The notes beneath the pieces are model-generated. The model was not told the DNA's origin and made no database searches. It saw only the letters and a list, made by a program, of their open reading frames with translations. From a virus (lineage: Duplodnaviria > Caudoviricetes), in the IMG/VR virus record IMGVR_UViG_3300033067_002106, positions 18,836 through 82,835 of that record: a DNA stretch of 64,000 nucleotides; one strand, 5' to 3'. The position numbers and the translations under genes are program-made. Of this stretch, positions 11,485 through 64,000 are shown piece by piece (the stretch's first letter is position 1; the number at the start of each line of letters is the position of its first letter).

Positions 11485-11784
11485 ATGAACAACAAAACTG
11501 AACACCCACTTGTATTGGTCTTTTATTTGGACCGTTTACTCATGCAAAACACCGAAATAATCAAAACCTTTGGTGAATCAATTAATCATATGATTAATGT
11601 TAAACAATTAAATGCTTTAGCTCTATTTATGCCAACAGACGATGAAGAAAGGGTTGAATGTATTAACCCTGTTATTGCCACAGATGAACAAATGTCTGAA
11701 ATAACAAAACTTATAAGCGATATTAAAAAACAATTCAGTGTCGGAGACGATACATCAAACATTCAATCACCAACCCATGACTAA
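11485..11784 (+). CDS. Hypothetical protein
   Basis: 99-aa ORF. Confidence 0.7.
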   Translation: MNNKTEHPLVLVFYLDRLLMQNTEIIKTFGESINHMINVKQLNALALFMPTDDEERVECINPVIATDEQMSEITKLISDIKKQFSVGDDTSNIQSPTHD

Positions 11785-11965
11785 CGAACAAAAAGCAATT
11801 TATTACGATGAATTACTACGTGAAAGCGATAAGTTACAACGAATTAATTCTAAACTTAAGTCTGAATATGTAACAGATATTCCCCCACATGTTCAGAAAA
11901 TAATAGATGAAAACAATGGTAAGATTGCGTTATTGGTAACTAAATTAGAAAACCTATTACGTTAA
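11777..11965 (+). CDS. Hypothetical protein
   Basis: ATG at 11777 overlapping previous gene end. Confidence 0.65.
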   Translation: MTNEQKAIYYDELLRESDKLQRINSKLKSEYVTDIPPHVQKIIDENNGKIALLVTKLENLLR

Positions 11966-12621
11966 GGTCTGGTTGACCGTCTTCTTATTTTGGTCATCGG
12001 CCATTTGGTGTGTTCATGAATAATTTCATACATTCTACTAACCGTTGCTGGCGTAGCTGTGCCCATAAACATCAGACTTTTTATCTTCTGCTTTTTGGCA
12101 ATCTTATTCAACACATGGTGTAAACGTTGAGCGTCTTCTTTACATTTACACACGACCATATCAAATTGGTCTTCGTTATAAATGACGAGTTTATTATGTA
12201 CAACAATGACTTGTTTTACCATTTTAGCTTTATATGCCCCGGAAACAAGACGCTTAACAACCTCATTTATTGTTGGTCTATTGGCTTTTGAATTTAAACC
12301 AAATATCCAAAATGTCTCCTCTAATTGGTAATCACTTGAAGCCAAAATTGTCCAATCCCCAATAGGTTTTTCAACATATGTCTTCCCATAATCATCCCTT
12401 ATTGTTCTAAATGTATCGGTTGGTTCTGTTGGTTTTATCACACAAATTTTATATTTTACTGGTTTGATTTTCAATGTGTTAACAAATTTTTTTGGAAATT
12501 TGATTTGTTTATTTTTTTCAATAAGATTGTGGTAATTAATAAATGATGTTTCCTTTGTTTTACAGGTGTGTAAGGTTTTTTTATATTTCCCGTTATATGT
12601 TAAAATTACTCTATAAATCAT
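11962..12621 (-). CDS. Hypothetical protein
   Basis: 219-aa ORF. Confidence 0.75.
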   Translation of the reverse strand: MIYRVILTYNGKYKKTLHTCKTKETSFINYHNLIEKNKQIKFPKKFVNTLKIKPVKYKICVIKPTEPTDTFRTIRDDYGKTYVEKPIGDWTILASSDYQLEETFWIFGLNSKANRPTINEVVKRLVSGAYKAKMVKQVIVVHNKLVIYNEDQFDMVVCKCKEDAQRLHHVLNKIAKKQKIKSLMFMGTATPATVSRMYEIIHEHTKWPMTKIRRRSTRP

Positions 12622-19662: not shown

Positions 19663-19734
19663 GGCTCGGTGGTGTAACGACAACATTTAGGACTCTAAAT
19701 CCGAAAGATAAGGGTTTGAATCCCTTTCGAGTCT
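19663..19734 (+). tRNA. Amber suppressor tRNA (CTA), copy 1
   Basis: Cloverleaf; loop ctCTAaa; D-loop GG replaced by GA; one anticodon-stem mismatch. Confidence 0.8.
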
Positions 19735-19741
19735 CAAAACC

Positions 19742-22136: not shown

Positions 22137-22207
22137 GTGGGTGTAGCTTAAAGGTAAAGCGATGGTCTCTAAAACCATTGTTGACAGTTCGATTCTGTTC
22201 ATCCATA
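22137..22207 (+). tRNA. Amber suppressor tRNA (CTA), copy 2
   Basis: Full cloverleaf; atggt-ctCTAaa-accat. Confidence 0.88.
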
Positions 22208-22239
22208 CAGATACTGTGGGTTCGAATCCCGTATATCCA
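22208..22239 (+). pseudogene. tRNA 3'-half remnant
   Basis: gtggg-ttcgaat-cccgt T arm without a 5' half. Confidence 0.6.
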
Positions 22240-28199: not shown

Positions 28200-28261
28200 A
28201 AATATTTAAAAAAAAGTCAGAAAAAACTTGTTTATTTGGAAAAGTTTTGTATATTTGCATT
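28200..28261 (+). promoter_or_regulatory. Conserved tRNA-operon promoter, copy 1
   Basis: aaaaaacttgtttatttg...gtatatttgca; near-identical at about 58045 and 63585. Confidence 0.8.
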
Positions 28262-28395
28262 CTAATTGATAACAATCCACGCAGTAACTGAGACCAATGG
28301 ATTGGGTGTTAAGCCTGAATAAGAAGCTGGTAAAACCGATAAATTTGTTTCTCAGCAAGTGCTTCTAAAAGAAACTGACACAAATATCAATTAGA
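28261..28395 (+). ncRNA. Candidate small RNA with paired ends and CAGCAA core (Y-RNA-like topology)
   Basis: Perfect 10-bp 28261-70/28386-95 followed by U run; inner helices 28273-79/28298-304 and 28347-51/28371-75. Confidence 0.55.
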
Positions 28396-28468
28396 TTTTT
28401 GATTTTTTTGCTTTTTTTAATTTTGTAACATATTTATTACTTAACGGGTAACCCATAAACATAAAACA

Positions 28469-29469: not shown

Positions 29470-29515
29470 CAAAGTAATCGAAAGAACAGTACTTAACGAT
29501 TAGATTACTAGACAG

Positions 29516-29602
29516 ACCCTATTGGTCGAGAGGCTTAAGACATCTTGCGAGAAGCAGGAGGCCCCGTGAAATGGTCCGTGGGTTCGAATCCCACATAGGG
29601 TT
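29516..29602 (+). pseudogene. Ser-like tRNA with aberrant anticodon loop (cgAGAag)
   Basis: Class II body; lacks U33; flanks extend the acceptor stem to 12 bp. Confidence 0.55.
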
Positions 29603-29611
29603 TGTCAACTT

Positions 29612-29793: not shown

Positions 29794-29869
29794 TGTTAAG
29801 TGGTGTAATTGTAGATAGCATGACTCTAGCGCAGGGGTAGGAAGTTGGTGCAACTCCAATACTTAACAG
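29794..29869 (+). pseudogene. Degenerate tRNA-like element
   Basis: tgttaag/cttaaca acceptor; T arm; irregular anticodon loop. Confidence 0.5.
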
Positions 29870-29875
29870 CAACAT

Positions 29876-58044: not shown

Positions 58045-58095
58045 AAAAAAGTAAGAAAAAACTTGTTTATTTGAGAAAGTTTCGTATATTTGCAT
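58045..58095 (+). promoter_or_regulatory. Conserved tRNA-operon promoter, copy 2
   Basis: aaaaaacttgtttatttg...gtatatttgca. Confidence 0.8.
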
Positions 58096-58243: not shown

Positions 58244-58327
58244 GTCTACGTGGTCGAGTGGTCGATGGCAGCGGTCTGCAAAACCGCAAGGGAAACCTCA
58301 TCGTTGGTTCAAATCCAACCGTAGATT
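58244..58327 (+). tRNA. tRNA-Cys(GCA) with long variable region
   Basis: ctGCAaa; U73. Confidence 0.8.
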
Positions 58328-58333
58328 CAAGAC

Positions 58334-58453: not shown

Positions 58454-59092
58454 ATGCCAAGAAAAGAAAAGGAGTATCACTTCATTTACAAAACGACCAA
58501 CTTACTTAGTGGTAAGTATTATATCGGAATGCATAGCACAGATAACCTTGAAGATGGTTATATGGGTAGCGGAAAACGACTTAGATATTCGTTGAATAAG
58601 TACGGTAAAGAAAACCATAAGGTGGAAATATTAGAGTTCTTTGATTCAAGAGAAGCCTTAGTTGAAAGAGAGAAATGGATTGTTTCTTTAAACGAGATTG
58701 CGAAAGAAGAGTGTATGAATTTAGTTGTTGGTGGTCAAGGTGGTTTTATTAGTTTAGAAGGTGCAAAGAAGGGTGGTAGAATTGTTGGGTATAAAAATGG
58801 TAAAAAACATGCCTTACGATTAGAAACGGATTTGATTTATCGAAATAATTTTTTAAATAGAATGAAAGCCGCACATCAAAGCGGGAGAGTTAAATACAAA
58901 AGTTTCAAGGGTAAAACACATACTGATGAAGCGAAAGAAAAAATGAGGAATAAGAAGCTAGGAAAAGGACTAGGGAAGACTAATTCTCAGTATGGTACCT
59001 GTTGGATTAACAACGGTACGCAAGAGATAAAAATTAAAAAAGAAGACTTAGAGAATTGGTTAGAGAATTCATGGGTTAAGGGTAGAATATAA
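58454..59092 (+). mobile_element. GIY-YIG homing endonuclease (MPRK family, copy 2)
   Basis: Clear paralog of 16149. Confidence 0.85.
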
Positions 59093-61010: not shown

Positions 61011-61082
61011 GGGTATTTTATATAAAATTTAAAGTTCTTTAAAATATGGTGTTTTTTGCGAACCTATCACATATTTATTGAT

Positions 61083-61793
61083 ATGAAAACTAAAGATGAG
61101 TATCAAAAAGTATGCGAATTGTTTGGGCAAGGTATTAAAAAATCTAAAATCGCCGAAATAATGGGTTTAGATAGGGGAACCGTTAGACGCTGGATAACAA
61201 CAGGGTTTACTGGTAAATCATCTAATGATATTATAGAATCATTAATCCTAAAAAAAGAAGATTATTCGTACATTTTAGGATTATATTTAGGTGATGGTTA
61301 TATTAACAAAACAGATAGAGCATATAGATTGAGAATATGTTTAGATTTAAAATATAATTTGTTGAATGATTATGCGTTTGAAAGATTAAAAAATCTGTTT
61401 CCAAATAACAGTGTTGGGAGTGTACACAGTTCTGGTTGTATCTATTTATATGTTTATAATAAACATTTACCAATAATGTTTCCACAACATGGTAGTGGAA
61501 GAAAACATTTAAGAAATATTATATTAGAAAATTGGCAGGTTAATATGATTGATTGGGTTGAATTGTTAAGAGGATTATTTCATTCGGACGGTTCATACTA
61601 TTTTGATAGGGGAAAAGATTATTTTAATTTTACTAATCTTTCGGATAATATTTTGAACTTATTTAAAATGTGTTGCCATAATCTTGGAATTCATTATACG
61701 CAAACTAATGATAAAACAATAAGAATTGGTAAACGACAAGACGTTAAAACAGTAAAAGAATTAATAGGTACAAAAATAAATATGGTCCTGTAG
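61083..61793 (+). mobile_element. LAGLIDADG-like homing endonuclease with N-terminal HTH
   Basis: SYILGLYLGDG; LRGLFHSDG. Confidence 0.8.
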
Positions 61794-62444: not shown

Positions 62445-62781
62445 GGTTGTTCATGTTAATAAAGAACCTTACGATGTCTATATCGGAAGACCCTCAAAAT
62501 GGGGTAATCCTTATACACATATCGTTGATAAGGAAACTCTGGCTGAATTTATTGTTGATTCAAGAGAGGAAGCGATAAGTAAATACAGAGAGTATTTGAC
62601 CAACAATGATGAGCTAATGGGTTCCATAATGGAACTGGATGGCAAAACGCTAGGTTGCTGGTGTATACAAGATTCAAACAATCCACCCTATCCTTATGTT
62701 TGCCATGGACAAGTGATTCAAGAAATAATCACAAGCTTAAAATTTAAACATGTTTTACGTAATACAAGAAAACCTCTTTAA
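62437..62781 (+). CDS. DUF4326-family protein
   Basis: VYIGRPSKWGNP; LDGKTLGCWC; CHG. Confidence 0.8.
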   Translation: MSKVVHVNKEPYDVYIGRPSKWGNPYTHIVDKETLAEFIVDSREEAISKYREYLTNNDELMGSIMELDGKTLGCWCIQDSNNPPYPYVCHGQVIQEIITSLKFKHVLRNTRKPL

Positions 62782-63571
62782 AGAGCATCACTATCAAACA
62801 TTGCTTAACACAATGGAGCGTTTCAAATTTGAATACGACATTGTAAAGTTTCTCCCATTCGTTGATGGTATCTATGAATGGTATGACCGTGAAGTTGTTG
62901 GTGATGCCTTTGAGCCAATACCCTACAAAACAGACCGTGAAAAAGTCTTTTGTTTTGGGGCTGTTGCTATGGCGGCTGCTGCTAAGAGGTATGGTTGGAC
63001 TCCCGGCTCAATGCTCAATGATAACCATGATTTTGACATATATGCTGAAAAATTTGGTGTTGAAAATATGTTAAACGGTGATGGTAAGGTGATTAATTTT
63101 ACTGACCCAATACCTTTCGAAGACGAATATTTTTTTGTAAGACCAACAAAAGATACAAAGGTTTTTAGTGGCCAAGTATTTAGCCGAGCAGCTTGGGCGG
63201 ATTATGCGAAGGTTTGTCGAGATACAGATACGGTAAACAGCATAACTGAAGAAACCAAAATCTTGGTCTCTCCAACCAAAAACATTCAACAAGAAGTAAG
63301 ATGTTGGGTTGTTGGTGGGAAGGTTGTAACAGCCAGTCGTTATAAGATTGGAAATAGGGTTATATATACCAACTATGACCATGAAACTGAATTTATTGAT
63401 TTTGCTCAAAGCATGGTTGATAAGTTTCAAGTTGCCGAAGCATTTGTTATTGACGTTTGTCTGGTGGATGACGAACTTAAGGTTGTTGAAGTCAACAATA
63501 TCAATTCCGCTGGGTTTTATGACTGTAATATGGTCAAGTTAATTGAGGCGCTGGAAAACCATTTTAACTAG
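62750..63571 (+). CDS. ATP-grasp protein (DUF4343/R2K-like)
   Basis: FFVRP.KD.K.FSG; EVRCWVV; FVID; VEVN..NSAGFY. Confidence 0.75.
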   Translation: MFYVIQENLFKEHHYQTLLNTMERFKFEYDIVKFLPFVDGIYEWYDREVVGDAFEPIPYKTDREKVFCFGAVAMAAAAKRYGWTPGSMLNDNHDFDIYAEKFGVENMLNGDGKVINFTDPIPFEDEYFFVRPTKDTKVFSGQVFSRAAWADYAKVCRDTDTVNSITEETKILVSPTKNIQQEVRCWVVGGKVVTASRYKIGNRVIYTNYDHETEFIDFAQSMVDKFQVAEAFVIDVCLVDDELKVVEVNNINSAGFYDCNMVKLIEALENHFN

Positions 63572-63579
63572 GTAAAAAA

Positions 63580-63641
63580 AATATTTAAAAAAAAAACCAG
63601 AAAAAACTTGTTTATTTGGAAAACTTTTGTATATTTGCATT
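63580..63641 (+). promoter_or_regulatory. Conserved tRNA-operon promoter, copy 3
   Basis: Near-identical to 28197-28261. Confidence 0.8.
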
Positions 63642-63682
63642 ATATTTATAAACAAGGGGAAATACCCCACAAAGAAAAAGAA

Positions 63683-63772
63683 ATGAGAAGCGTTAATTTT
63701 ATATTTGATTTTGCGATTGAAGCAGCCGAGGCCGATTTTAGCCACGGAAGGTCGAGTATTGCCCAAAATTAA
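63683..63772 (+). CDS. Leader peptide MRSVNFIFDFAIEAAEADFSHGRSSIAQN
   Basis: F/D/A/E-rich core; antiterminator aggtcgag 63749-56. Confidence 0.8.
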   Translation: MRSVNFIFDFAIEAAEADFSHGRSSIAQN

Positions 63773-63795
63773 CGTTTGAAAGATAACAAGTTTTG

Positions 63796-63825
63796 AAGCC
63801 CTCGACCTAAAATCGAGGGTTTTTT
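63796..63825 (+). terminator. Attenuator terminator
   Basis: aagccctcga-cctaaaa-tcgagggttt plus T run, directly before tRNA-Asp. Confidence 0.85.
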
Positions 63826-63829
63826 GTTT

Positions 63830-63917
63830 GGATATGGCGCATAGCGGTTGTTGCACCACCCTGTCACGGTGGTAAGTAGGTAAAACGAAAAAGCGGGTTC
63901 GATTCCCGTCATATCCG
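63830..63917 (+). tRNA. tRNA-Asp(GTC) with 20-nt variable region
   Basis: ccacc-ctGTCac-ggtgg; G73. Confidence 0.78.
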
Positions 63918-63966
63918 CCCTTGACTTTTTTGTACCTAGCACATATTTATATAGAAATGTATAGAT

Positions 63967-64000
63967 ATGCCTAGAAAACAAAAAACAATTCACTACCTTT
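63967..64000 (+). mobile_element. GIY-YIG endonuclease (MPRK family, copy 3), 3' partial
   Basis: 63924-64000 is identical to 16106-16182. Confidence 0.8.

Follow-up and report, generated by a model that had tools for sequence, protein, structure and literature searches.

INTRODUCTION

The pheST attenuator of E. coli, with its pheM leader, reads the status of tRNA-Phe via Phe codons. Like the locus described here, it is a leader-peptide attenuator placed on a component of the decoding apparatus, but it controls a synthetase rather than a tRNA, senses a single amino acid, and belongs to a cellular gene. To our knowledge, all leader-peptide attenuators described so far regulate amino acid biosynthesis enzymes or aminoacyl-tRNA synthetases, and none regulates tRNAs. 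The tRNA genes of phages are usually viewed as cargo that is expressed constitutively, serving to adjust codon usage or to make up for tRNAs that host defenses have cleaved, and we know of no description of leader-peptide control for the tRNA arrays of large phages.

Here, we analyze a stretch of viral DNA of 64,000 nucleotides (the window), near the end of which a short open reading frame (ORF) and a hairpin precede a tRNA gene. Judging from sequence, and with no expression data, we consider it likely that positions 63603 to 63919 form a ribosome-mediated (leader-peptide) transcription attenuator that gates a phage tRNA operon, whose tRNAs would probably be made only when ribosomes read Phe, Asp, Ala, and Glu codons slowly. 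Support for this interpretation comes from the statistics of leader composition, from compensatory changes, and from the geometry of the folds.

RESULTS

Source of the window and recovery of related leaders

The window comprises bases 18836 to 82835 of one 82,835-base viral contig, and the end of that contig is window base 64000. No terminal overlap was found in the 82,835-base contig. An earlier, sequence-only reading of the window had predicted that tRNAs for Phe, Ala, and Glu, and possibly Ile, lie further downstream; because the record holds no DNA past window base 64000, this prediction was tested in relatives. Relatives were sought via the ATP-grasp protein encoded at 62750 to 63571, which adjoins the leader. 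This search identified six viral contigs, and DNA patterns from the leader gave more. The closest relative is L001, in which the neighboring protein is 77% identical. A metagenome search with a degenerate pattern from the 3' end of the leader matched one contig, L009. Viral contigs were also scanned for the promoter plus the leader-start motif, yielding 36 stretches; these and the loci found earlier gave a set of 31 leaders (28 unique) from more than 15 viral contigs.

No close relative of this genome was detected by blastn among deposited phages, and a cultured phage with the leader, terminator, and tRNA architecture was sought but none was found. The best deposited matches of the ATP-grasp neighbor protein are uncultured huge phages, among them LR756501. 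The source is a giant phage of Bacteroidota; Bacteroidetes hosts have been predicted for huge-phage genomes above 634 kb (PMC7162821).

Promoter and 5' region

The elements observed or predicted at the locus are collected in Table 1. The promoter box AAAACTTGTTTATTTGGAAAA is present in three copies in the window (exact at 28223 and 63603, with two mismatches at 58058), versus 0.05 expected from shuffles. We take the pattern TTG-N19-TAnnTTTG to be the Bacteroidota promoter type known from Bacteroides and Flavobacterium promoters. In related contigs, an identical -7 motif is also found upstream of ordinary protein genes, and the "same promoter" that the sequence-only reading assigned to the leaders is therefore an extended copy of a general Bacteroidota-type consensus. 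No terminator was seen in the stretch that separates the promoter at 63603 from the gene before it, so read-in transcripts may exist.

Table 1. Elements of the putative attenuator and the first gene behind it (window coordinates)
Feature	Position	Strand	Description
Promoter	63603..63637	+	21-nt box 63603-63623 with -33-like CTTG at 63607-63610, 19-nt spacer, -7 box TATATTTG at 63630-63637
Small 5' hairpin	63656..63668	+	GGGG, 5-nt loop, CCCC; between expected transcript start and leader ATG
Leader ORF	63683..63772	+	ATG, 29 sense codons, TAA at 63770-63772
Region 1 (protector helix 5' strand)	63688..63712	+	Codons 2-10; pairs with region 2 in the ribosome-free fold
Regulatory codons 6-19 (putative)	63698..63739	+	Core FIFDFAIEAAEADF; Phe x5, Ala x4, Asp x2, Glu x2, non-matching Ile at codon 12
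Region 2 (protector helix 3' strand)	63748..63777	+	Holds the antiterminator strand AGGTCGAG (63749-63756) and the stop codon
Intrinsic terminator (predicted)	63796..63825	+	Stem 63799-63805/63813-63819, 7-nt loop, TTTTTT at 63820-63825; hairpin -13.5 kcal/mol
Region 3	63801..63808	+	CTCGACCT; partner of the antiterminator strand, overlaps terminator 5' arm and loop
tRNA-Asp(GTC)	63830..63919	+	90 nt, unusually long variable region; ARAGORN, Rfam tRNA 45.7 bits; first gene of the gated operon

Two relatives carry a tRNA-Met(CAT) gene between the promoter and the leader orthologous to that of the window (L007:1135-1208 and L009:2864-2937), where the window and L001 have the GGGG/CCCC hairpin instead. 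Because of this position, attenuation would not affect transcription of the tRNA-Met.

The promoter copy at 28223 has no leader directly behind it. It is followed by a structured RNA of about 140 nt (28262-28410) with a 9-bp closing helix and a T-run end, and a stretch of L001 (10880-10960) begins similarly. The first leader of the window comes only after this RNA, and its own -7 box looks degenerate.

The leader ORF and its codon core

Several elements proposed in the sequence-only reading were recovered at exactly the positions given there: direct reading of the DNA confirms the 29-amino-acid ORF with its core at codons 6 to 19, as well as the perfect 8-nt complementarity between AGGTCGAG and CTCGACCT in the terminator (Table 1), and the tRNA-Asp(GTC) that it placed after the terminator is called both by ARAGORN and by the Rfam tRNA model. 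The ORF lies in an A-rich upstream context, without a Shine-Dalgarno sequence. Within the core, 11 of the 14 residues belong to the set D, F, E, and A, against a background of 0.225 (P = 1.4e-5).

The reading frame of the leader is kept in five diverged orthologs. The leaders of L001, L007/L017, and L009 are orthologous to that of the window, and their 3' half is nucleotide-identical to it. In the distant leaders of L052 and L055, the order of the core is rearranged and its composition is the same as in the window. That order varies between relatives while composition is kept argues for selection on the codons rather than on the peptide. The agreement is not complete at the level of single codons, as core codons without such tRNAs downstream occur both in the window leader (Ile) and in L001 (Asn). 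Codon 7, also Ile, is conserved across all leader classes. The number of distinct synonymous codons per leader was not significantly above expectation, and codons rarer than those of the phage's genes are used by leaders of classes 2 and 4 only (classes are defined below).

Taken together, the structural criteria of leader-peptide attenuators, namely, a short ORF, matching codons, a terminator, an exclusive antiterminator, and a 1:2 helix, are met at this locus, the antiterminator by computation only.

tRNA genes in the window and behind orthologous leaders

The absence of Phe, Ala, and Glu tRNAs from the window, as stated in the sequence-only reading, is essentially right. The sole call is an "Ala(AGC)" at 29794 to 29870 made by ARAGORN alone; its anticodon stem is mismatched, and it has no Rfam match at E <= 0.001. 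Similarly, an ARAGORN tRNA-Ser(AGA) at 29515 to 29603 falls below the Rfam tRNA model at E <= 0.001. Both calls are probably decayed or aberrant tRNA copies.

Behind the terminator of the orthologous leader, L001 carries tRNAs for Asp, Asp, Phe, Phe, Glu, Glu, Asp, Ala, and Ala; L007/L017 carries Asp, Phe, Phe, Glu, Glu, Asp, Ala, and Ala; and L009 carries Asp, Asp, Phe, Phe, and Glu before the available sequence ends. In L017, a class 4 leader comes after this tRNA operon. For the distant leaders, the tRNAs are Phe, Glu, Asp, and Ala in L052 and Phe, Glu, and Asp in L055, where no Ala was called. The downstream prediction can be judged in these relatives only. Its Phe and Glu tRNAs are present in every one of them; its Ala tRNA is present in L001, L007/L017, and L052, is out of reach of the available sequence in L009, and was not called in L055. 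Its possible Ile tRNA occurs in no class 3 operon of these five and was rejected as part of this operon; Ile tRNAs belong to the operon behind the first leader of the window. Not all relatives gate this set of tRNAs: in the more distant contig G002 (L023:17142-17240), a tRNA-Phe follows directly after a promoter with no leader, and no class 3 leader was seen.

Behind each terminator, the operon opens with an isoacceptor gene of excessive length (Asp, 88 to 91 nt; Cys, 85 to 88 nt) that has a long variable arm, and a normal-length copy follows later in the operon. Examples are found at 63830-63919 and 58244-58328 in the window, at L001:12295-12382, and at L007:1366-1456. The extra arm co-varies between L001 and L007 and looks unstructured in the window.

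Other elements accompany the tRNA genes. L001 contains a GOLLD-like large RNA at 11557-11971, which matches Rfam RF02032 over the whole model (74 bits, E = 5e-19) but does not reach its gathering score, 150. This RNA lies immediately upstream of a tRNA-Gln and the class 3 leader; the window has no such match. Homing endonuclease genes of the GIY-YIG SegE-like and LAGLIDADG types lie among the tRNA genes of the window (58454-59092 and 61056-61793). An ORF beginning at 63967 and truncated where the contig stops (63967-64000) has the same N terminus as the GIY-YIG gene, and this repeat may be the reason that the assembly broke there. Upstream of the attenuator-controlled operons, the window encodes a phage tmRNA (15748-16104) and two tRNAs with a CTA anticodon (amber suppressors; 19663-19735 and 22137-22208).

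Leader composition follows tRNA content in four leader classes

The 28 unique leaders form four paralogous classes with a common N-terminal pattern. Class 1 leaders are rich in Ile, Asn, His, Met, Ser, Trp, and Arg and precede tRNAs for Trp, Ser, His, Ile, Met, Asn, and Arg; class 2 leaders are rich in Leu, Val, and Cys and precede Cys, Val, and Leu tRNAs; class 3, which includes the leader at 63683 in the window, is rich in Phe, Asp, Ala, and Glu and precedes Asp, Phe, Glu, and Ala tRNAs; and class 4 is rich in Lys, Thr, Tyr, Gln, Pro, and Gly and precedes Pro, Gln, Tyr, Thr, Gly, and Lys tRNAs. Each of the 20 amino acids belongs to exactly one of the four sets. For 20 of 20 amino acids, the class with the highest core frequency is the class that carries the corresponding tRNA (binomial P = 9e-13, with the reservation that the contigs are related). 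The true assignment of classes scores 0.84, versus 0.49 for the best of 23 permuted assignments.

Because the contigs of the four classes are related, independent replicates were sought in huge-phage records. Two published records, LR756501 (L060) and LR756500 (L061), have their tRNAs grouped differently, and in each the leader follows the local grouping. In L060, 21 of the 27 core residues of an ORF starting at ATG 7992 are R, T, V, A, G, or P (P = 1.3e-7); the ORF is followed by a 10-nt antiterminator complementarity and a terminator and then by tRNAs for Arg x3, Thr x3, Val x2, Ala x2, Gly x3, Arg, and Pro. In L061, H, E, V, W, and L are abundant in the leader at ATG 8901, and the tRNAs behind it are those for His, Glu, Val, Trp, and Leu.

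Exceptions were also observed. The class 2 leader of L003 and L004 keeps four Val codons (L003:7606-9174), and neither ARAGORN nor Rfam detects a Val tRNA in that block; in L040, the class 1 leader retains Trp, with no Trp tRNA detected.

Predicted alternative folds of the leader transcript

The leader region folds far better than its shuffles (z = -4.9). In the minimum-energy fold without a ribosome, regions 1 and 2 pair and the terminator forms too, and an equivalent 1:2 helix is found in the folds of L001, L007, L009, L052, and L055. Conservation of the closing helix GTTAACGTTT extends to sequences with a different reading frame. When ribosome masks were applied to the full-length leader, the terminator remained in the minimum-energy fold at every ribosome position. 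As the terminator is never lost at equilibrium in the full-length transcript, any switch must be kinetic, as in trp; this outcome is what a kinetic switch would be expected to give and is not counted as evidence for one. Such a kinetic switch is assumed here and has not been shown, and the tightness of transcription-translation coupling in the host is unknown.

Co-transcriptional folding was modeled by cutting the transcript just before the 3' arm of the terminator and moving a ribosome footprint along it codon by codon. In the cut transcript, an antiterminator hairpin spanning 63749 to 63808 (-17.0 kcal/mol) beats the terminator (-13.5 kcal/mol). In this computation, the antiterminator forms with the A site on codons 1 to 19, except codon 17, and is blocked on codons 20 to 29. 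The boundary at which blocking begins, codon 20, coincides with the end of the Phe/Asp/Ala/Glu core. Across the 28 unique leaders, the two boundaries lie no more than about two codons apart throughout classes 2, 3, and 4 and for the majority of class 1 leaders. Among stall codons that leave the antiterminator free, 80% match amino acids of the operon, compared with 39% elsewhere, although these sequences are related and not independent.

Conservation of the predicted antiterminator pairing

The position of the terminator is constant, lying 23 to 34 nt past the stop codon in 30 of the 30 leaders with a detected hairpin (31 were collected), and the best complementarity to its 5' arm occupies a class-specific fixed place inside the 3' part of the ORF. 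For the window leader alone, the duplex energy of the 8-bp core antiterminator reaches only p = 0.06 against shuffles; in single leaders this complementarity is often not significant by that comparison, and class 1 antiterminators are weak. Compensatory changes are seen between relatives, with the AGGTCGAG/CTCGACCT pair of the window replaced by AGGTCA/TGACCT in L052 and L055, and equivalent double changes are present in classes 1 and 2. Further, cognate duplexes exceeded non-cognate ones in strength in 88% of the comparisons made in class 3, and in 66 to 89% within each class. This evidence was taken from helices identified per sequence, with shuffled and non-cognate controls, rather than from alignment-wide counting of pairs, because MAFFT sets the terminators of L052 and L055 one column out of register.

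DISCUSSION

A model for control of the tRNA operon

The features described above can be arranged into a working model in which translation of the leader is inferred. Host RNA polymerase would initiate at the promoter, and a ribosome would translate the 29-codon leader. If codons 6 to 19 are read fast, the ribosome would move onto codons 20 to 29 and cover region 2, in which case the terminator hairpin would form and transcription would end before the tRNAs. If aminoacyl-tRNA for the core codons is scarce, the ribosome is predicted to stall in the core, breaking the 1:2 helix and leaving region 2 free. The antiterminator strand could then pair with region 3 before the 3' arm of the terminator is synthesized, and polymerase would continue into tRNA-Asp. 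Read-through would next reach the Phe, Glu, and Ala tRNAs, a step that is inferred from relatives, as the operon of this phage is unseen beyond 64000. The physiological trigger is likewise an inference. Since the tRNA products would relieve the stall, the circuit would amount to negative feedback on decoding capacity.

Alternative explanations

Three other explanations have to be weighed against this model. There may be no switch at all. The hairpin would then be a leaky terminator that acts constitutively, or would serve in processing or stability, and the ORF would be untranslated or encode a micropeptide with its own function. The equilibrium folds, which always retain the terminator in the full-length leader, fit this possibility, as do the resemblance of class 2 leaders to hydrophobic membrane peptides and the frequent failure of single leaders to exceed shuffles in their antiterminator complementarity. 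It leaves unexplained, however, the agreement of leader composition with operon content for 20 of 20 amino acids, the leaders of L060 and L061 that follow other tRNA groupings, the shuffled order of cores whose composition is kept, and the coincidence of the composition boundary with the boundary set by the ribosome footprint, and we regard it as very unlikely. Alternatively, the leader may be translated and sense the same codons, but with an output other than termination: the stalled ribosome would alter how the tRNA precursor is processed or degraded, for example through an RNase site or the 5' helix that it exposes or hides. A GC-rich hairpin with a T-run at a fixed distance after the leaders is the signature of intrinsic termination, and the conserved, co-varying complementarity is aimed specifically at the terminator 5' arm; these points make an effect on processing improbable in our judgment, even though the tRNA gene between promoter and leader in L007 and L009 implies that the transcript is processed near the leader anyway, and even though the closing helix is conserved despite a differing reading frame.

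A remaining explanation accepts the same attenuator but changes its signal, which would be host amino acid starvation, sensed through uncharged tRNA, so that the leader would report growth state and would not provide feedback on tRNA supply. Classical leaders respond to the level of charging, and sequence alone cannot separate the two signals. Yet extra tRNA does not relieve amino acid starvation, and gating sets of tRNAs by their own codons would seem sensible only if tRNA supply limits decoding, which is itself an inference. With these points in mind, we find a starvation signal hard to credit and continue to favor an attenuator that responds to the supply of tRNAs.

Possible role of the four proposed attenuators

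What the four attenuators do together is a more speculative matter. They may constitute a decoding-capacity sensor for all 20 amino acids, through which each block of replacement tRNAs is induced only upon depletion of the corresponding host tRNAs, for instance by host anticodon nucleases or phage shutdown of the host. Such an arrangement would serve both as an inducible counterdefense and as a tRNA homeostat, and it would have evolved repeatedly in huge Bacteroidota phages, with each leader tracking its own grouping. We put this forward tentatively, as a possibility that we do not rate at even odds. A codon-sensing attenuator ahead of every tRNA block would mean that the phage gauges translation speed for each codon family and supplies tRNAs on demand.

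A full-text literature search found no description of leader-peptide attenuation controlling tRNA genes, and no description of codon-sensing control of tRNA genes was found in any organism. The text of the huge-phage paper of Al-Shayeb et al. 2020 contains neither "attenuat" nor "leader" (PMC7162821). At the level of sequence, the rule that leader composition predicts operon content held across lineages, including a published huge-phage genome. The leaders also offer compact, portable sensors of decoding capacity for chosen codons.

Comparison with known systems

The Rfam leader families (His, Leu, Thr, Trp, and Phe) and the T-box gave no match in the window at E <= 0.001; only the tRNA and tmRNA models match. 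T-box riboswitches resemble the proposed attenuator in that the choice between terminator and antiterminator is set by the state of a specific tRNA and acts on translation-related genes. They differ in binding uncharged tRNA directly, without a ribosome, and in having a specifier loop and a T-box motif. The tRNA arrays of large phages (T4, T5, and huge phages) share with this locus the clustering of tRNA genes interspersed with homing endonuclease genes, and two huge-phage records (LR756501 and LR756500) carry the same leader architecture as the window.

In architecture, the locus resembles the leader attenuators of enterobacteria. As in the leaders of ilvGMEDA (Ile/Val/Leu) and in thrL (Thr/Ile), trpL, hisL, and pheL, a promoter-proximal short ORF is rich in the codons to be sensed, alternative 1:2, 2:3, and 3:4 helices are combined with an intrinsic terminator before the regulated genes, and the full-length terminator is thermodynamically favored, hence the kinetic choice. 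The phage leader differs in belonging to a Bacteroidota phage and in lacking a Shine-Dalgarno sequence. Whereas the enterobacterial leaders regulate biosynthetic enzymes, those of the phage would regulate tRNAs. Each phage leader would sense between four and seven amino acids, and all 20 are covered by the set of leaders in one genome.
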